Under the pieces are notes generated by a model, which saw nothing but the letters and a program-made list of their open reading frames with translations, had not been told where the DNA came from and ran no database searches. 64,000 nucleotides of DNA from Promethearchaeota archaeon. Its GTDB lineage: Archaea > Asgardarchaeota > Lokiarchaeia > Sigyniarchaeales > SOKP01. The DNA lies in the NCBI GenBank assembly GCA_048941285.1, contig JBHLNS010000004.1, positions 2,896-66,895 of the forward strand. Direction: 5' to 3'. This document shows, piece after piece, positions 19,425 to 28,837 of this stretch. Position 1 is the first letter of the stretch. Every line of letters begins with the position of its first letter. Made by a program: the position numbers and the translations under genes.

Positions 19425-21422
19425 CTAATCCTCCAAAAATGAGCTATATTTTTCTACTAATTTATTCTTGAGGCGATTTTCTTTTGAATTCATTGATTGA
19501 AGGTTTTCATTTGATTCGAAAAGCTCTAAGCCTTCAATTTTTCTTTTACTTAATTTATTTCTAAGAAAATTTTCAGCATTTTTCTGCTCTATTTTATTTA
19601 TAATATTGAAATCGTTGTCTTTTTCAACACACTCGAAAACAAACTGTTCCATAAATCTTGTGCTTAGCTCTTCATTAATTAAGATGAGATTTGTCTCATC
19701 AAAATCTAATTTCTTTTGATAATAAGGTGTGGCAAATTCATATTGGAGTTCTGATTTCTGTTTATAAAGTCTTAGATAAATATATGCTATTAGAACAATA
19801 TAAAACGAAATTACACCATAACCTAAATTAATTAGGAAAGATAAAACTGAATACGCTTGGAATAATAATACTAATAAAAAAAAAAAACCATAAAGCATAA
19901 AGGGAGTTGAATATTTTCGTAAGTCTTTAATAAATTTATTTGAAGCTTTACAATGTAGATCCAATGCGTTCTTCTGTTCGCTATAAGTTTCTATTAGAAA
20001 ATGCTTTTGGTCAATGTATTGCAGGAAATCCTGTAGCTGGGATAGTGATAAAATATGTATATTTAATTGTTTTTGGTAAGCAAATGGAACAAGCTTTTCA
20101 GCAAAACCTACATTATTTCGATGTATTAATAATGGTTCAATTAAGATTTTATATTGAAGTGGTCCAGAGCGAAAAAAAAGTTTTTTGTGTGTAAAAGTTT
20201 TTTCCAGAAAAAGGTTGATATTTAAATATTTAGATAAATATCTAAAAAATCTTCCTTCATTTAACATATCTTCAAGAAGAACATCCTGGATATTTTTAAA
20301 TGCTTTTAAATATGATTGAGATAGTCTTTCTAACCTAAAATTCTGTTCAGTATAATTCCCTATAGATCGATATTTAATTGCATTACCTGATACAATAATT
20401 GAACCATTTAAAGAACTAATCTTTATAGGGATGATTAATATCAATTCCAAGAATTCTTTTACTCGGATGAGTTTAACTGCTAGGAGATCTATTCCAGTAA
20501 ATATCGTTCTTAATTCCGGACTTTTTTTAATTATAACAAATTCAGATAATTCAAGTTCTTTTGCAGTTTCCAAATAAATTTCCTGTAATTGAGAAGAATT
20601 TAAAGATTCACTAGAGATTGTATCTTGTTCCTGGACTTTAAGATTAGATTGTCGTAATAATTCTGGAGGGACAACTAGGAAGTTATTTATTTCCGATTCT
20701 TGGGATAATTCGGGATTATTTTTTTCTATTTTTTTTTCAGAAACATTAAAATTGCTAATTGATGCGCCATTATTATCAATCTCTTCGTAATCAAACTCCT
20801 CAAGGTTATCGTCATACCTTTCAAAATTCTCCAAACTATTTTCTAAAGGTTTAATATCAGATGTATCAATCTGTGGAGCATACCACTCTTCAGTTTCAGG
20901 TTTTTCAAATTTTCTTTCAAACCATCTATGTGATCCTTCCCCTGATTTTGATTCTTTGGTGTTGTCCAGATTTATCCTAATATTGCTTTTTTCTGGAAAA
21001 TCGTTTAATTTTTTTAGCCTTACATGCTGCTTCGCGTTTTCTATAAATTTTTGGGCTTTAACTATCCCAATACCATTAATCTGAGTTATTTTCTTTGGTG
21101 AAGAATATGCTAATTCTGAGATTGAACTAATACCAATTTCAGCAAGCTTTTCAGCAACTTTTAAACCAATACCATCTATTATTGTAAGGGATTCTCTTTT
21201 TATACTTGGATTTAAAGAGTTTTGTTGCGACACATTTGAATTAAATATATCAAATTTATCGATCCATTCACAATTCTTTTGCAATTTAGCTTCCCTAAGG
21301 CCATTATTAGATATTTTTAGCGCTTGATCTACATCATTTGCTTGAAAGGCTTCTTGTGCCATTTTGTAGTAGAACTTCAAATCCGATTTTTTCTGCATTA
21401 AACCATCTTGAGTATCAGTCAT
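19425..21422 (-). CDS. membrane protein with N-terminal TPR-like helix pair and tandem helix-hairpin-helix DNA-binding motifs
   Basis: 665-aa ORF with HhH motifs IDGIGLKVAEKLAEIGISSISEL and INGIGIVKAQKFIENA. An acidic linker follows, then a TM hairpin (FMLYGFFFLLVLLFQAYSVLSFLINLGYGVISFYIVLIAYIYL). First gene of the operon. Confidence 0.6.
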   Translation of the reverse strand: MTDTQDGLMQKKSDLKFYYKMAQEAFQANDVDQALKISNNGLREAKLQKNCEWIDKFDIFNSNVSQQNSLNPSIKRESLTIIDGIGLKVAEKLAEIGISSISELAYSSPKKITQINGIGIVKAQKFIENAKQHVRLKKLNDFPEKSNIRINLDNTKESKSGEGSHRWFERKFEKPETEEWYAPQIDTSDIKPLENSLENFERYDDNLEEFDYEEIDNNGASISNFNVSEKKIEKNNPELSQESEINNFLVVPPELLRQSNLKVQEQDTISSESLNSSQLQEIYLETAKELELSEFVIIKKSPELRTIFTGIDLLAVKLIRVKEFLELILIIPIKISSLNGSIIVSGNAIKYRSIGNYTEQNFRLERLSQSYLKAFKNIQDVLLEDMLNEGRFFRYLSKYLNINLFLEKTFTHKKLFFRSGPLQYKILIEPLLIHRNNVGFAEKLVPFAYQKQLNIHILSLSQLQDFLQYIDQKHFLIETYSEQKNALDLHCKASNKFIKDLRKYSTPFMLYGFFFLLVLLFQAYSVLSFLINLGYGVISFYIVLIAYIYLRLYKQKSELQYEFATPYYQKKLDFDETNLILINEELSTRFMEQFVFECVEKDNDFNIINKIEQKNAENFLRNKLSKRKIEGLELFESNENLQSMNSKENRLKNKLVEKYSSFLED

Positions 21423-25475: not shown

Positions 25476-26000
25476 TTAAACCTTTAATTTATAGTAATAA
25501 TCACCATTTATTCGTTTCAAAACGCCTTGTTTCTTTAGTTTTCTTGTTAATAATTTTACTTCTGATTTCGGAATATTGTAGTTTTCTGCCATTATTTCAA
25601 TAATATAGTAAGGAAAAGTATTATAAGCTTTAGATAAGTTATATAGCATTTGTTTTAATTTCTCAGAATAATTATAATCATTAAAATCAATATTAATTGC
25701 ATCTTTTTGACTTTTTTCCCTTCCAACTACTCTGAAATCTTCTGATGTTCTAAATACAGGTTCTGAACCCAACTCTTTTATTGCTAACTCATTCTGCTTC
25801 TTTTTCACTAATTCTATTGCATTGGATATACCTTTTATAATTTCACTTCGTTCTATTACGTTATTAACTTTATGAATATAACCACACCTAATACATTTCT
25901 TCGTCTTTTGAGTACTTTTTGCATAAATATAGTTATGACATTTTCTACAAGAAAATATCAAATAAGGAGTTTCATCTTTTTTCCAAATTATATCTTCCAA
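25476..26000 (-). CDS. zinc-ribbon protein (DUF1922-like) with C-terminal winged-helix-like region
   Basis: CRKCHNYIYAKSTQKTKKCIRCGY ribbon. The C-terminal KLLTRKLKKQGVLKRINGDYYYKL is wHTH-like. TTG start 6 nt after the Hef stop. Confidence 0.5.
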   Translation of the reverse strand: MEDIIWKKDETPYLIFSCRKCHNYIYAKSTQKTKKCIRCGYIHKVNNVIERSEIIKGISNAIELVKKKQNELAIKELGSEPVFRTSEDFRVVGREKSQKDAINIDFNDYNYSEKLKQMLYNLSKAYNTFPYYIIEIMAENYNIPKSEVKLLTRKLKKQGVLKRINGDYYYKLKV

Positions 26001-26006
26001 AGTTGC

Positions 26007-28178
26007 CTATTCCTCCTGAGGATTTTCTAGAATATTTTTTATAATAAAATATAATTCTTCTTCATTATCGATAACTATTGCCTGAATTTTTTGTTTTTTG
26101 GCAAATTCTTGTATTTTTCTCGCAATAACTCTCTTCTCTCCCTCGATATTTTGAGAAAAATCGATAAAGTCAAAGACCATGATGAAAAGTGAAGAGATTT
26201 GCTTAAAATCATTAATATCTCTTATTAGGTTTACTAAATTAAAACCTTTAGGATCGTAGATCTGGATAAGAATCTTGTTATGAATGATTATATGATGATC
26301 AGATTCTATAATATCATAAAAAATATTATCACTTTGGAGTCTTTTTCTCAGCCCGAATTTCATGGGTAAAAATTTACTTATTTTTAAATTATTTGTTATA
26401 TTGGGAGGATCAATTTTAGTCGATTCTTGCATAAATGATTCGATTTTAGATTGGTGCTGTCTTGGTTCTATTACTTTTCTCCGCAATTCCACTAGTTTAG
26501 GCTCTTTCTTAGATTTTTTAATGGTTTTCTCATTTTTAATAATAGCCATCTGATCATTGACGGGGCTATATTTATATGAATCTTGTAATTGTTTAGGATT
26601 TTTCAAATGTAAATTCATCCTTTTGAGTTTATTCATTGCAATTCTTAAATATATTTCGTCTCGCGTGTCATTACTATAAAGAATAACGACTTTACCCTCA
26701 CGATGTCTTGCTGTTCTTCCTTTCCGCTGAATGAATCTTACATCTGAAGCAACTACATCATAAAATATAACTAAATCACATTCAGCAATATCCAGCCCTT
26801 CTTCACCGACGTTTGTCGAAATGAGAACATTATATTGCCCCTCTTTAAAGTTATCTAGAATTTCTATTTGCTTTTTTTGGGACATTCCTTTATCATCAAA
26901 TGATTTCGTGGTTTGCCCCACAAATCTTACTGCATTAATTGAAGGAATTTTTTGAAGTTTTTTTGTTATATTCTTAACGGAATTACGCAACTTCACAAAC
27001 ACTAAAATTCGAGAATGAGGATTATTCTTCAATTCTTCTAAAATAATCTTAACCAAAACATAATACTTCGGATGAATCAACATTTCAGGAGAAAATTCAA
27101 CATTTTTCTTTAATTCTAAAAATATGCGATATAATCGCCCATCTGATGACAATATTTTAGTGGCTTTCGAACTACTTTTCTTCTTTGCGTCTCGATGAAG
27201 TTTATTAAAATAATCTAATAATACATCGAGCCCTTGCTGCTCTACTAATTCAAGCATATGAAATAAAATTAAAGCCTGTGCATTAATCGATAAAGCGCTA
27301 TAAATTCCTGTTTTGTCCCCATTGCTTTTTAACTCATTTACTAATTCTGAATTTAACTTTAATAAATCTTTCCTGATAACTTTTGTAAGTAATTGTTCTC
27401 CTTTTATTTCTAAAAAATTGAGTTGAGAAAGGTAATGCAATCGTTCCTCTAATACAATCGTGAGCAATTTATATACATCTTTCATTAGACTGGTTAAATC
27501 GACTCCAATTTTGTATATATCCATTGGTTTGAGATAATTCTTTACATCTTCGTCTTTTCGTGTTCTGATATGAATATTTTCTATAGGAATATGCAAATTA
27601 TTACATAATACGGTAATTTTATTTTTTGAAGCTCCAGGTGAAGCAGTCAGACCTAATATTATTCCGTCGGGATTATGATCGACAAATTCATCAGCAATCA
27701 TCGTATAAGGATAATCTCCAGTCCCATGATGAGCTTCATCAAAAATCACTAAAGCAGTATTTGAGAGGGAATACTTTTGATTCACTAAATCGTTTCTTAG
27801 AGTCTGAGGAGTGTAAAATAATATTTGATTTTGATGAAAAATATCAATCCTATGCTCAGGAAGTACTTTTCCTGTAAGAATTGCATATTTATTTTCAGGA
27901 ATCTTAAGAAATTTTAAGAATGTATGATAATGCTGATCTATTAATGGCCTGGTAGGGGCAAGGATAATAACTTTACTATCAACTGGGAACATTTCTATTA
28001 TTTTACCAGCAACAAGAACCGCAATTATCGTTTTACCCAACCCTGTAGGAAGTACAACTAACGAGTTCTTTCCAGCACATTGTTCTGCGATTTTTTCTTG
28101 GTATTCTCTAACCTCTAATTCACTCGAGTCTAATATCGATGCGCTTTTTTCTACAGTTAGCCTTATCTCACCCATCAT
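26007..28178 (-). CDS. hef: Hef/FANCM/Mph1-family SF2 helicase with C-terminal ERCC4-like domain lacking catalytic residues
   Basis: PTGLGKT Walker A, DEAH (FDEAHH), TASPG and motif VI QRKGRTAR. The C-terminal ~135 aa keep the XPF/ERCC4 topology, but I could not find the GDY/ERK residues. There is no (HhH)2 tail. Confidence 0.75.
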   Translation of the reverse strand: MMGEIRLTVEKSASILDSSELEVREYQEKIAEQCAGKNSLVVLPTGLGKTIIAVLVAGKIIEMFPVDSKVIILAPTRPLIDQHYHTFLKFLKIPENKYAILTGKVLPEHRIDIFHQNQILFYTPQTLRNDLVNQKYSLSNTALVIFDEAHHGTGDYPYTMIADEFVDHNPDGIILGLTASPGASKNKITVLCNNLHIPIENIHIRTRKDEDVKNYLKPMDIYKIGVDLTSLMKDVYKLLTIVLEERLHYLSQLNFLEIKGEQLLTKVIRKDLLKLNSELVNELKSNGDKTGIYSALSINAQALILFHMLELVEQQGLDVLLDYFNKLHRDAKKKSSSKATKILSSDGRLYRIFLELKKNVEFSPEMLIHPKYYVLVKIILEELKNNPHSRILVFVKLRNSVKNITKKLQKIPSINAVRFVGQTTKSFDDKGMSQKKQIEILDNFKEGQYNVLISTNVGEEGLDIAECDLVIFYDVVASDVRFIQRKGRTARHREGKVVILYSNDTRDEIYLRIAMNKLKRMNLHLKNPKQLQDSYKYSPVNDQMAIIKNEKTIKKSKKEPKLVELRRKVIEPRQHQSKIESFMQESTKIDPPNITNNLKISKFLPMKFGLRKRLQSDNIFYDIIESDHHIIIHNKILIQIYDPKGFNLVNLIRDINDFKQISSLFIMVFDFIDFSQNIEGEKRVIARKIQEFAKKQKIQAIVIDNEEELYFIIKNILENPQEE

Positions 28179-28791
28179 TAATCACCATAAATGTATGATT
28201 ATCTATAGTTATGTTTTGAAACTGTTTATTGCTTTTATTGTAAGAAATAATCACTTCTCCTAATTTTAATCCTAAGTTAGAAGGGTATACTACACAATTT
28301 CCTTTTGTTTCAAACAAATATGGGTGTGTGTTCCTTAATTTCTTAACCTTTGATAATAATTCAGAGCCATTCTTCACAATATCAAACCCCTTGCCTCTAT
28401 TAACATGCTTAAAGATATAGATAATATCGTTTAATAGTTTTATATGGGAATTTGATATATAGATTGTTGGTGGGATTTCAATTTTTTCGTATTCATCCTT
28501 TTTATCAGTAATTAGATAAACTTGATTATTTGCACGATATTTTCGTATTTGGTAATTTTTAAAAACATTTTCAAACTTTTCTTGAAAATTTAGTAATAAG
28601 GATATAATTTCGTCTGTCTGAGACTGAGGGATTCCCAACAGTTTTATTAGTTTGCTAAAATTGAACTTTCTATCATAAAAGTTCTCGAACTTTCCTAGAT
28701 AATCCACCATTTGGTTTAATACTCTAAGAATCTTTCGAAATTGCTCTGTATTATAATCATTAGTATTATTAGTATCTGAGGCTAAAGTCAT
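28168..28791 (-). CDS. hypothetical protein, possible HTH + beta-rich (WYL-like?) regulator, co-transcribed with hef
   Basis: Overlaps the hef start by 11 nt. HTH-like FSKLIKLLGIPQSQTDEIISLL. The domain guess is weak. Confidence 0.45.
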   Translation of the reverse strand: MTLASDTNNTNDYNTEQFRKILRVLNQMVDYLGKFENFYDRKFNFSKLIKLLGIPQSQTDEIISLLLNFQEKFENVFKNYQIRKYRANNQVYLITDKKDEYEKIEIPPTIYISNSHIKLLNDIIYIFKHVNRGKGFDIVKNGSELLSKVKKLRNTHPYLFETKGNCVVYPSNLGLKLGEVIISYNKSNKQFQNITIDNHTFMVINDG

Positions 28792-28837
28792 CAAATATTA
28801 ATAATTTATTGAATGAATAAAAAGGAAAAATTTAGCT

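Follow-up and report, generated by a model that had tools for sequence, protein, structure and literature searches.

The window (the whole stretch of DNA that was analysed, 64 kb) carries on its minus strand a gene for a 723-residue protein of the Hef helicase family, which is tightly flanked by two smaller genes (Table 1). The protein combines a helicase core, a linker with a PIP-box-like motif and a C-terminal domain that is predicted to have the fold, and to lack the active site, of the ERCC4/XPF nucleases. An earlier note on this DNA had singled out positions 26007-26424, which correspond to residues 585-723 of the ORF plus its stop codon, and the strings quoted there are present in the ORF (ESDHHIIIHNKILIQIYD, residues 625-642; IQAIVIDNEEELYFIIKNILE, residues 698-718).

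Table 1. Features of the Hef-like gene and of the genes next to it (positions are those of the window).
Feature	Position	Strand	Residues	Description
Whole ORF	26007..28178	(-)	723 aa	Hef-like helicase, then linker with PIP-like motif, then ERCC4-fold pseudo-nuclease; no (HhH)2
SF2 helicase core	26619..28136	(-)	15-520	Two RecA lobes and helical "thumb" insert
Helicase motif I, PTGLGKT	28029..28049	(-)	44-50	Intact
Helicase motif II, DEAHH	27726..27740	(-)	147-151	Intact
Helicase motif VI, QRKGRTAR	26706..26729	(-)	484-491	Intact
Variable K/E-rich linker	26454..26618	(-)	521-575	30% mean pairwise identity, as against 74% for the helicase
PIP-box-like QSKIESFM	26430..26453	(-)	576-583	Consensus Q-x-x-L-x-x-F-[ILFM]
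ERCC4/XPF-fold pseudo-nuclease domain (predicted)	26025..26387	(-)	598-718	b1-a1-b2-b3-b4-a2-b5-a3-b6-a4
Strand b1, LKISKFLP	26364..26387	(-)	598-605	Replaces canonical I-I-V-D-x-R-E
SDHHIII	26283..26303	(-)	626-632	Replaces canonical V-G-D-Y-I-x-S
Strand b4, ILIQIYD	26253..26273	(-)	636-642	Replaces canonical V-A-I-E-R-K-x
b6-a4 end, IDNEEELYFIIKNILEN	26022..26072	(-)	703-719	Matches canonical "...I(F/Y)T....ETA..L..IAKREQ" ending
Upstream gene	28168..28794	(-)	208 aa	Stop overlaps Hef-like start by 11 nt; conserved neighbour
Downstream gene	25476..26000	(-)	174 aa	Starts 6 nt past Hef-like stop; DUF1922 zinc ribbon; conserved neighbour

The locus falls within a stretch of about 20 kb whose synteny is shared among Asgard genomes, and PADLOC showed generic SF2 similarity only; a defence-system reading was rejected on these grounds. 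The "operon" formed with the neighbour genes is not universal, both flanking genes being absent from the locus of P. syntrophicum MK-D1. The AF2 model of the upstream protein (pLDDT 83) suggests tandem winged-helix-like modules, its winged-helix similarities being weak and all of its PDB fold matches having an E value of 0.06 or more. As a candidate FAAP24/ERCC1-like partner this protein was rejected, hhalign returning nothing and a fold match being absent. The C-terminal half of the downstream DUF1922 protein has marginal similarity to SelB winged-helix domains (E = 0.02), and by hhalign the protein is unrelated to ERCC4-like partners.

The N-terminal part of the protein is a Hef-type SF2 core in which motifs I, II, III, V and VI were all found. 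Pfam recognizes DEAD, Helicase_C and RNA_helicase_helical domains, the last of which (PF21210, residues 242-351) is the helical thumb insert. The best match among PDB sequences was the helicase of P. furiosus Hef (1wp9; E = 8e-105 over residues 21-519), and FANCM (9el5) matched in two segments with E = 2.7e-62, as befits a translocase of the Hef/FANCM type. Mean pairwise identity in the core reaches 74% among 108 homologues. These matches confirm the initial assignment to the Hef helicase family, to which the NCBIfam "Hef nuclease" model (PRK13766/NF010337) adds a score of 556.5 bits, covering profile positions 9-551 of 781 only and staying below the equivalog cut-off (610 bits, full-length match).

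For the C-terminal region, the alignment to ERCC4 profiles that the earlier note had called for gave a divided answer: sequence profiles found no ERCC4 domain, whereas fold search and iterated profiles did. Pfam (E<=1) and NCBIfam searches with the C-terminal 197 aa gave no ERCC4 match, a profile of 40 homologues retrieved no ERCC4 chain from the PDB sequences, and PF02732 was precomputed on 0 of the 120 closest homologues. When the C-terminal 155 aa served as the only query, the homologue search yielded just 18 fragments, all from the protein's own family, with no other architectures and no ERCC4 proteins, and direct hhalign comparison with 44 canonical ERCC4 domains was weak (E = 0.086). The AF2 model, built on 40 homologues (pLDDT 85.9, pTM 0.76; mostly pLDDT >90 within the pseudo-nuclease domain), had as its best Foldseek match the nuclease domain of P. 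furiosus Hef (1j22; E = 7e-6, TM 0.63/0.70), and the best 38 matches were all XPF, Mus81-Eme1, ERCC1, FANCM or FAAP24. In addition, an iterated profile seeded by the degenerate family alone pulled in canonical GDY...ERK domains at iteration 3. The C-terminus is thus predicted to have an ERCC4 fold, homology being argued from the fold match together with the intermediate profiles, and on both counts the original description of the last ~125 aa as ERCC4-like is borne out.

The stop codon follows five residues after modelled helix a4, which ends at residue 718; canonical Hef runs on from there into (HhH)2, a tail for dimerisation and DNA binding. Pfam found no HhH in this ORF or its neighbour, which starts 6 nt downstream, while canonical Asgard Hefs do give HHH_5/HHH_2 matches. 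Of the active nuclease and (HhH)2 that characterize Hef, the nuclease fold is predicted to be present, its motif is replaced and HhH is absent. All 108 near-full-length homologues terminate at the same place, so the C-terminal end is not a truncation artefact, and the absence of an (HhH)2 tail, as read earlier from the one sequence, holds for the family. Alternatively, the C-terminal region might have no relationship with ERCC4 and resemble its fold by chance, or the protein might have been cut by an assembly or frameshift error. We regard this as extremely improbable in spite of the missing direct sequence-profile match: the 38 best Foldseek matches belong to one family and are headed by the orthologous P. 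furiosus Hef domain, the domain occupies the same place in the protein as in canonical Hef, a transitive profile link leads to canonical ERCC4, and the shared end point comes from independent assemblies, with the next gene only 6 nt downstream.

Within this domain the metal-binding and catalytic residues are replaced. In the register on which two of three alignments agree (the third is shifted by one residue, leaving each assignment uncertain by one position), VDxRE of strand b1 becomes ISKFL, with S601 for D (S in 101/108 homologues) and L604 for E; the catalytic D of GDY becomes H629 (H in 104/108), D627 lying two residues before it; E, R and K of ERK become Q639 (Q in 108/108), I640 and Y641 (Y in 79/108, otherwise mostly L, I, F or M); and G645 stands at the D position of ERKxxxD. 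The residues of a PD-(D/E)XK-type site are therefore missing, and their replacements are conserved family-wide. Whatever the register, strand b4 (ILIQIY) is without an acidic or basic residue, and in none of the registers was an intact GDxn(E/D)RK motif recovered. These results therefore agree with the earlier proposal that the catalytic GDxn-ERK residues have been lost.

A number of polar residues are nevertheless invariant or nearly so, namely Q639 and E708 (108/108 each), D670 (107/108), E707 (106/108), H629 (104/108) and E681 (99/108), and together these six could make up another active site. The domain would in that case still be an enzyme, a non-canonical nuclease or some other hydrolase with a rebuilt site (for example H629, Q639, D670 and E681). 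We consider this improbable, since every D, E, D, E, R and K position of the PD-(D/E)XK site has been replaced, E to Q at the E position is a classic inactivating change, and D670 and E708 are the "EG" and "ET" positions, which lie outside the catalytic motif and are conserved in canonical domains too. More distant members of the clade carry unrelated residues at the catalytic positions (H..H-I-L, D..K-F-L, N..N-I-L, G..S-L-V), a pattern that fits relaxed catalytic constraint across the clade.

The sequence QSKIESFM, which fits the PIP-box pattern Q-x-x-[LIM]-x-x-[FYW]-[FYW/hydrophobic], is embedded in linker regions of 14-30% identity about 15 aa N-terminal to the pseudo-nuclease domain, the adjoining spacer having a mean pairwise identity of 14% (108 homologues). 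In the homologue alignment Q1 is invariant (108/108) and L4 and F7 are near-invariant, with L, I or M at the former and F or Y at the latter in 108/108. The motif forms a short helix in the AF2 model, and it aligns with QxxLxxF of canonical Hefs. PCNA binding has been demonstrated for T. acidophilum Hef, while FANCM binds via a different, N-terminal PIP-box (PMC4838364). From its sequence we infer that QSKIESFM may likewise bind PCNA.

More than 100 orthologues of 685-730 aa were found in MAGs labelled Loki-, Thor-, Hermod-, Hod-, Hel- and Odinarchaeota, and the cultured P. syntrophicum MK-D1 and L. ossiferum also have the protein. A neighbour-joining (NJ) tree of the helicase sets the pseudo-nuclease forms apart from canonical Hefs with 75% bootstrap, canonical Asgard Hefs sharing ~41% identity with them in the helicase. 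The pseudo-nuclease domain has a mean pairwise identity of 54%, compared to 14-30% in the flanking linkers, which indicates that the dead domain is under purifying selection and that its state is maintained family-wide in Asgard archaea and is not a local decay. The first description of the domain as eroded was thus right as to the catalytic residues and wrong in so far as it implied the erosion of a single gene, the state being kept in >100 Asgard orthologues. A full-text literature search gave no paper describing a pseudo-nuclease Hef clade, and the labels in use ("Fanconi anemia group M protein", "ERCC4-related helicase", "DEAD/DEAH box helicase") mask a distinct, uncharacterised clade. Taken as a whole, the results are very probably explained by an Asgard-wide Hef-family clade with an intact SF2 translocase and an ERCC4 pseudo-nuclease, from which (HhH)2 has been lost.

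Catalytic ERCC4 proteins also occur in Asgard archaea. Complete Ca. Heimdallarchaeum genomes carry a canonical Hef (P0203), one "Hodarchaeota" contig (L006) carries both a canonical Hef and a short XPF of 230 aa (ERCC4 plus HhH; L006:231-923), and a precomputed PF02732 match exists for the canonical Asgard Hefs at L006-L009, L018 and L019, as it does for genes of the "Hodarchaeota" P0162/P0306 cluster. A 2026 review also states that XPF occurs in Asgards (PMC12993045). Asgard archaea thus have two kinds of ERCC4-domain protein, a catalytic one (short XPF, canonical Hef) and a non-catalytic one (pseudo-nuclease Hef).

In eukaryotes, every degenerate ERCC4 domain that we know of is partnered by another ERCC4 domain, and pairs of this kind occur among the Foldseek matches reported above. 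The pseudo-nuclease domain might similarly contribute the inactive half of a heterodimer, its catalytic ERCC4 partner being the short Asgard XPF or a canonical Hef. Such a pair would mirror ERCC1/XPF, EME1/MUS81 and FAAP24/FANCM, with the helicase bringing an active nuclease and the (HhH)2 of its partner to forks. The existence of both candidate partners in Asgards and the purifying selection on the dead domain are in keeping with this, and an (HhH)2 of its own would be dispensable if the partner provides one. However, among the assemblies sampled, the three with canonical Hef (JBHLKK, JBHLKL, JBHLKU) and the 13 with the degenerate form do not overlap, a scan of genome contigs with the full-length protein having given only six close relatives. 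Neither of the closely linked neighbour genes resembles ERCC4, and in the proposed check for a separate XPF, run with a canonical-ERCC4 HMM on six-frame ORFs, neither the 64-kb window nor the syntenic loci L001-L005 contained an XPF/ERCC4 gene. We therefore think such a heterodimer possible, though rather unlikely. To our knowledge, heterodimers of a catalytic and a non-catalytic ERCC4 protein have so far been described in eukaryotes only, and it is doubtful that the dead domain together with a catalytic XPF represents a prokaryotic forerunner of the XPF-ERCC1, MUS81-EME1 and FANCM-FAAP24 pairs.

The clade invites comparison with eukaryotic FANCM, which the earlier note had drawn by calling a degenerate ERCC4 domain the hallmark of that protein. 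This was overstated: according to Coulthard et al. 2013 (PMC3763369), only hominid FANCM orthologues depart from the PD-(D/E)XK consensus, which non-hominid FANCM retains. FANCM has moreover kept its (HhH)2 and forms a pair with FAAP24. FANCM thus joins an ERCC4-like domain to (HhH)2 and acts with FAAP24, whereas HhH, a FAAP24-like neighbour and a window ERCC4 gene are all absent here. Moreover, because the protein has 723 aa and a linker of ~75 aa, there is no room for regions that bind MHF1/2, BLM/RMI and the FA core (MM1-MM3).

Direct descent of eukaryotic FANCM from the Asgard pseudo-nuclease Hef clade would account for a combination found in both, that of a working translocase and a dead ERCC4 domain, and the point-estimate NJ tree of the helicase does join human FANCM to the degenerate clade. 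In this tree, which includes one eukaryotic sequence, the two are joined in only 6/100 bootstraps, with long branches on both sides; the phylogenetic placement that had been suggested thus does not fix the position of FANCM. Human FANCM helicase fragments score on average 233 bits against canonical Hefs and 224 bits against the pseudo-nuclease family, and their scores against two Asgard canonical Hefs (P0162, 264 bits; P0153, 260 bits) exceed that of the best family member (245 bits). FANCM keeps (HhH)2, and outside hominids the nuclease consensus (PMC3763369), which is hard to reconcile with descent from a lineage that has lost both. Its PIP-box is N-terminal, whereas the motif here lies in the linker, as in archaeal Hef. 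We therefore judge such an ancestry to be very improbable. A lineage that had already lost the catalytic residues as well as (HhH)2 is unlikely to have given rise to FANCM, which makes convergence, not descent, the best reading of the resemblance. Of the "FANCM-like state" originally proposed, the translocase with a dead ERCC4 domain remains, whereas its strong form, a tie by descent, is very improbable.

Judging from sequence, predicted structure and analogy, the protein is most likely a PCNA-tethered fork-remodelling translocase, in which the dead nuclease domain would serve as a structural or partner-binding module. PCNA would recruit it to stalled forks via the linker motif, as demonstrated for T. 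acidophilum Hef, and ATP-driven translocation would remodel branched DNA, as it does for Hef, FANCM, Mph1 and Fml1. The protein itself would not cut DNA, any incision being done in trans by another nuclease. The pseudo-nuclease domain would be kept for self-association, for contact with the branch point or duplex, or for the docking of a partner.

Eukaryotic elaboration has a textbook example in the XPF/MUS81/FANCM family, where homodimeric archaeal nucleases gave rise to heterodimers of one live and one dead ERCC4 subunit, and helicases, live or dead, were fused to some of these. Some Asgard lineages retain a Hef in which a live helicase is joined to a selectively conserved dead ERCC4 domain, and others have canonical Hef and a short XPF. 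Pseudo-nuclease evolution in this family therefore took place in archaea as well, independently of FANCM. The 723-aa protein offers a compact model for the role of a dead ERCC4 domain beside a fork-remodelling motor.

Among known systems, euryarchaeal Hef (P. furiosus, T. kodakarensis, H. volcanii) consists of an SF2 helicase, a disordered linker, an active XPF-type nuclease and (HhH)2. In H. volcanii, where loss of hef causes aphidicolin sensitivity and is synthetically lethal with loss of hjc, Hef is reported to require its helicase as well as its nuclease activity. The protein described here shares with euryarchaeal Hef the helicase core with thumb, the domain order, the QxxLxxF past the helicase and an ERCC4 fold at the same position; it differs in lacking VDxRE, GDY, ERK and (HhH)2, in forming a separate clade (75% NJ bootstrap) and in its score relative to the equivalog cut-off (556 vs 610 bits). 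The canonical Asgard Hefs come from the same phylum and share the linker motif (QRDLTEFF, QPPLERFI). Unlike the pseudo-nuclease form, they and the short XPF (P0203, P0162/P0306, L006) have GDY...ERK (ADY in P0162) and (HhH)2, and canonical Hef lies in another neighbourhood, in which 0 conserved neighbours of the degenerate form are present.

ERCC1, EME1/Mms4 and FAAP24 are similar in that selection has preserved an ERCC4 fold with lost catalytic residues for a structural or partner role, but they are separate subunits that dimerise via their own (HhH)2, whereas the domain here is fused to a helicase and has none. Human FANCM-FAAP24 (4bxo, 4m6w, 9hjo), chains of which are among the Foldseek matches of the pseudo-nuclease model with TMq of about 0.6, likewise includes a Hef-related translocase with an ERCC4-fold domain, and that of FANCM lacks endonuclease activity. 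[quoted passage not shown] The closest archaeal precedent is the Hef of T. acidophilum (taHef), which is nuclease-less, has already been used as a FANCM model and was proposed to work together with PCNA as a translocase of the FANCM type (Rohleder et al. 2016, PMC4838364). Both are archaeal Hef helicases with a PIP-box-type motif past the core, and taHef lacks, as the Asgard protein is predicted to lack, nuclease activity; taHef stops at the PIP-box, an ERCC4 domain being entirely absent, whereas the Asgard protein keeps, after the motif, a conserved pseudo-nuclease domain that is predicted to be folded.

The Hef-like protein combines a live Hef-type motor with a dead, conserved domain of predicted ERCC4 fold, lacks the (HhH)2 tail and carries a conserved PIP-like motif. 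The span flagged in an earlier note forms the 3' end of its ORF (G+C content of the window ~29%), and both strings quoted there were located in the protein, at residues 625-642 and 698-718. The same protein, lacking the first Met but otherwise identical, is encoded on a contig of 146 kb in a MAG named 'Promethearchaeota archaeon' (Asgard archaeon). Assignment of the helicase to the Hef family, made in that note, is well founded: motifs I (PTGLGKT), II (DEAHH), III (TASPG), V and VI (QRKGRTAR) are intact, and the top match among sequences of solved structures was the P. furiosus Hef helicase (1wp9, 8e-105), followed by human FANCM (2.7e-62) and then by RIG-I-like receptors (RIG-I, MDA5, LGP2) and Dicer. 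The NCBIfam Hef model PRK13766 scored 556.5 bits, under its 610-bit cut-off, and aligned to profile positions 9-551 of 781 only, leaving the nuclease and HhH section of the profile unmatched.

Features of the Hef-like locus and of compared loci (window positions unless a locus or residues are named)
Feature	Position	Strand	Remarks
Syntenic block, ~15-20 kb	17833-33256		loci L001-L005, L010-L017
665-aa protein	19425-21422	-	sole recognisable part: RadA/Rad51-N-terminal-type HHH_5, residues 76-140
Hel308-like helicase, 845 aa	21931-24468	+	convergent; NCBIfam Hel308 models cover only ~residues 30-500
Small ORF, 91 aa	24486-24761	+	beside 72/79-aa pair; no Pfam match
Small ORF, 72 aa	24912-25130	+	no Pfam match
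Small ORF, 79 aa	25223-25462	+	no Pfam match
DUF1922 gene, 174 aa	25476-26000	-	starts 6 nt past Hef-like stop; conserved in close-orthologue loci
Hef-like ORF, 723 aa	26007-28178	-	3' end is the flagged span
DEAD/ResIII	Hef-like residues 21-181	-	Pfam
Helical 'thumb' insert PF21210	Hef-like residues 242-351	-	Pfam
Helicase_C	Hef-like residues 377-492	-	Pfam
PIP-box-like motif QSKIESFM	26430-26453, residues 576-583	-	Q-x-x-L-x-x-F-[ILFM]; conserved island in fast-evolving linker
208-aa gene	28168-28794	-	stop codon overlaps Hef-like start by 11 nt
P-loop NTPase, 241 aa	34710-35435	+	nSTAND3/NB-ARC-type similarity
Short crenarchaeal-type XPF, 230 aa	L006:231-923		ERCC4 + HhH, GDY...ERK intact
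Canonical Hef, 758 aa	L006:6001-8277		ADY...ERK + HhH2
Prometheoarchaeum syntrophicum MK-D1 member	L020 (CP042905.2):10001-12115

Neither Pfam nor NCBIfam detected an ERCC4 domain in the last 197 aa of the ORF, and a profile built from alignment A1 (40 homologous C-termini) found no ERCC4 chain among PDB sequences. An AlphaFold2 model from the same alignment (pLDDT 85.9, pTM 0.76; model residues 21-145 mostly >90) has the secondary-structure order b-a-b-b-b-a-b-a-b-a, and its first Foldseek match in the PDB was the P. furiosus Hef nuclease domain 1j22 (E 7e-6, TM 0.63/0.70, 18% identity). Further matches were to A. pernix XPF, MUS81-EME1, XPF-ERCC1, FANCM-FAAP24, the ERCC1 central domain and FAAP24, the XPF/MUS81/ERCC1/FANCM/FAAP24 family accounting for all of the top 38. 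Iterated local hmmsearch seeded with A1 alone retrieved other degenerate tails first, then canonical GDY...ERK domains at iteration 3 (E<1e-3) and 43 of these by iteration 5; direct profile-profile comparison of the degenerate and canonical domains was weak (hhalign, E 0.086). Judging from these profiles, sequence homology to canonical ERCC4 can be reached through intermediates. By its predicted structure, the C-terminus is an ERCC4-fold domain, as had been claimed.

For the active site, two independent alignments (hhalign, and MAFFT of the bridged set) agree on a register that fits the hydrophobic periodicity of the beta-strands and F646 as anchor of the canonical 'ERKxxxDF'; a third (iterated hmmsearch) is shifted by one residue there, and the register carries this one-residue uncertainty. 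The catalytic positions D, E, D, E, R and K are all replaced, and the reported erosion and absence of ERK extend to the whole family. In V-D-x-R-E the D is replaced by S601 (S in 101/108 homologues) and the E by L604 (L/F/I/V in 108/108), and the D of G-D-Y by H629 (H in 104/108), while E-R-K has become Q639 (Q in all 108), I640 (I/V/L in 103/108) and Y641 (Y in 79/108, the rest mostly L/I/F/M). Whatever the register, the beta4 strand I-L-I-Q-I-Y is without an acidic or basic residue, and D627, two residues ahead of H629, is the sole candidate acidic survivor. Residues equivalent to the first D and to the K are among those that XPF needs for activity, according to work that Coulthard et al. 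2013 (PMC3763369) cite. Distant members of the degenerate clade have unrelated residues at the same positions (H..H-I-L, D..K-F-L, N..N-I-L, and G..S-L-V in P. syntrophicum MK-D1), as expected from an old loss of catalytic constraint.

The (HhH)2 tail is likewise missing, as first noticed: no HHH family of Pfam matched the ORF, the last modelled helix stops at residue 718, the ORF immediately downstream is that of the DUF1922 zinc-ribbon protein, and the C-terminal end point is common to 108/108 near-full-length homologues (685-730 aa). PF02732 appears in the precomputed annotation of 0/120 of the closest homologues; canonical Asgard Hefs carry PF02732 with HHH_5/HHH_2 in the same annotation. 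Mean pairwise identity among the 108 homologues is 74% in the helicase and 54% in the ERCC4-like domain, as against 30% in the linker and 14% in the spacer directly before the domain. These values indicate that the dead domain is kept by selection and is not decaying.

The PIP-box-like motif adjoins the upstream side of the flagged span, matches the consensus Qxxhxxaa and forms a short helix in the AlphaFold2 model. Its Q, L/I/M and F/Y positions are each kept in 108/108 homologues, and I/L/F/M at position 8 in 100/108. It lines up with the QxxLxxF of canonical Hefs from Thermococcus, Methanosarcina, Hadesarchaea and Asgards, and Rohleder et al. predicted this motif for the Hefs of P. furiosus and of haloarchaea from an alignment of the helicase C-terminus and linker start (PMC4838364). 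The protein may therefore be a PCNA binder through this motif.

The surrounding syntenic block is kept in 11/11 distinct Asgard loci with close orthologues, and is absent at canonical-Hef loci and at the MK-D1 locus. Its order is a TFB-like protein (454 aa), a prenyltransferase-like protein (974 aa), the 208-aa protein, the Hef-like protein, DUF1922 and small ORFs, continuing with the Hel308-like and HHH_5 proteins and unknowns of 242, 286 and 1278 aa. The 208-aa protein has 83 homologues, all unannotated, and its AlphaFold2 model (pLDDT 83.4) resembles tandem (two or three) winged-helix-like modules, with nothing below E 0.06 among PDB folds. We rejected it as a FAAP24/ERCC1-like partner, there being neither profile similarity nor such a fold match. 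DUF1922 has an N-terminal, MTH1184-like zinc ribbon and a C-terminal half marginally similar to SelB winged-helix domains (E 0.02). Neither neighbour was found beside the MK-D1 member, and they are thus not obligate partners of the whole clade. PADLOC returned generic helicase similarity only for the locus.

Three small ORFs between the DUF1922 gene and Hel308 are conserved in most syntenic loci, and the 72- and 79-aa ORFs look mutually paralogous (shared ...IPFS+...Y.Y.G.E.I.F.ERHP.Y...). The Hel308-like gene, with 65-80% identity between loci, is far better conserved than the Hef-like one; its C-terminal half has a C-x-C...C-x-H pattern (YCQFDIETGIQCTCGF...FCKH) that is SWIM-zinc-finger-like by eye, with no Pfam report. 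The HHH_5 protein is a conserved block member, as are the three unknowns after it. Locus L004 has a gene of 230 aa, close to RadA, that resembles the P-loop NTPase.

The 120 nearest homologues, at 58-82% identity, belong to MAGs that carry the labels Loki-, Thor-, Hermod-, Hod-, Hel-, Odinarchaeota or 'Promethearchaeota', all taxon names here being MAG labels. An exhaustive search over 50%-identity representatives added more degenerate subfamilies, with members P0165 (QEE16342.1) from the cultured P. syntrophicum MK-D1 and P0222 from Ca. Lokiarchaeum ossiferum, and experimental systems for the clade therefore exist. These two are still more diverged and bear no annotation beyond 'DEAD/DEAH box helicase' or 'SrmB'. 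The search also yielded canonical Hefs, Asgard ones among them: P0203 from the complete genomes of Ca. Heimdallarchaeum endolithica and aukensis, P0162 and P0306 from 'Hodarchaeota'/Promethearchaeota MAGs, and P0153 from a 'Lokiarchaeota' MAG. Among the assemblies sampled (3 canonical, 13 degenerate), none had both forms.

In a neighbour-joining tree of 440 helicase columns with one eukaryotic sequence, the phylogenetic check set beforehand, 37/37 degenerate forms fell into a single clade apart from canonical Hefs (75/100 bootstraps). The point estimate places FANCM with this clade, yet in 6/100 bootstraps, both branches being long. Human FANCM helicase fragments, taken from the FANCM alignment of the PDB-sequence search, scored slightly lower against the degenerate family (mean 224 bits, maximum 245) than against canonical Hefs (mean 233; Asgard P0162 264, P0153 260). 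The 'FANCM-like state' proposed earlier is best taken as analogy and not as lineage. To call a degenerate ERCC4 domain the hallmark of eukaryotic FANCM also goes too far, since departure from the nuclease consensus is confined to hominid orthologues, and FANCM retains (HhH)2, most acidic residues and bound metal (Coulthard et al. 2013, PMC3763369). Having lost everything that FANCM keeps of these, the degenerate Asgard Hef is an improbable ancestor of it. To our knowledge, the fungal FANCM orthologues Mph1 and Fml1 are without an ERCC4 domain altogether.

We infer that PCNA would tether the protein at stalled forks, where it would remodel branched DNA by translocation, like Hef, the T. acidophilum Hef (taHef), FANCM and Mph1. 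It would be unable to incise DNA; the pseudo-nuclease domain may be a module for self-association, DNA contact or partner docking, and any needed cutting would fall to nucleases in trans. The alternative of greatest interest would pair the dead domain with a catalytic Asgard XPF, in the manner of eukaryotic ERCC1, EME1 and FAAP24. Asgards carry XPF according to a 2026 review (PMC12993045), and a short XPF lies in another Asgard MAG ('Hodarchaeota', L006, GCA_048886755.1, JBHLKL010000004.1), 5 kb from a canonical Hef, so that some Asgards at least have two active ERCC4 genes; the check for a separate XPF proposed in the earlier note turned up no ERCC4 gene in the 64-kb window. We hold such pairing to be rather unlikely.

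Our full-text literature search found no description of the degenerate Asgard clade. The clade is of moderate interest for how the XPF/MUS81/FANCM family evolved at the archaeal-eukaryotic boundary. A nuclease-less Hef (T. acidophilum) and a pseudo-nuclease FANCM are already known. The Asgard protein, like taHef, is a Hef helicase, and it is predicted from its sequence to have no nuclease activity.
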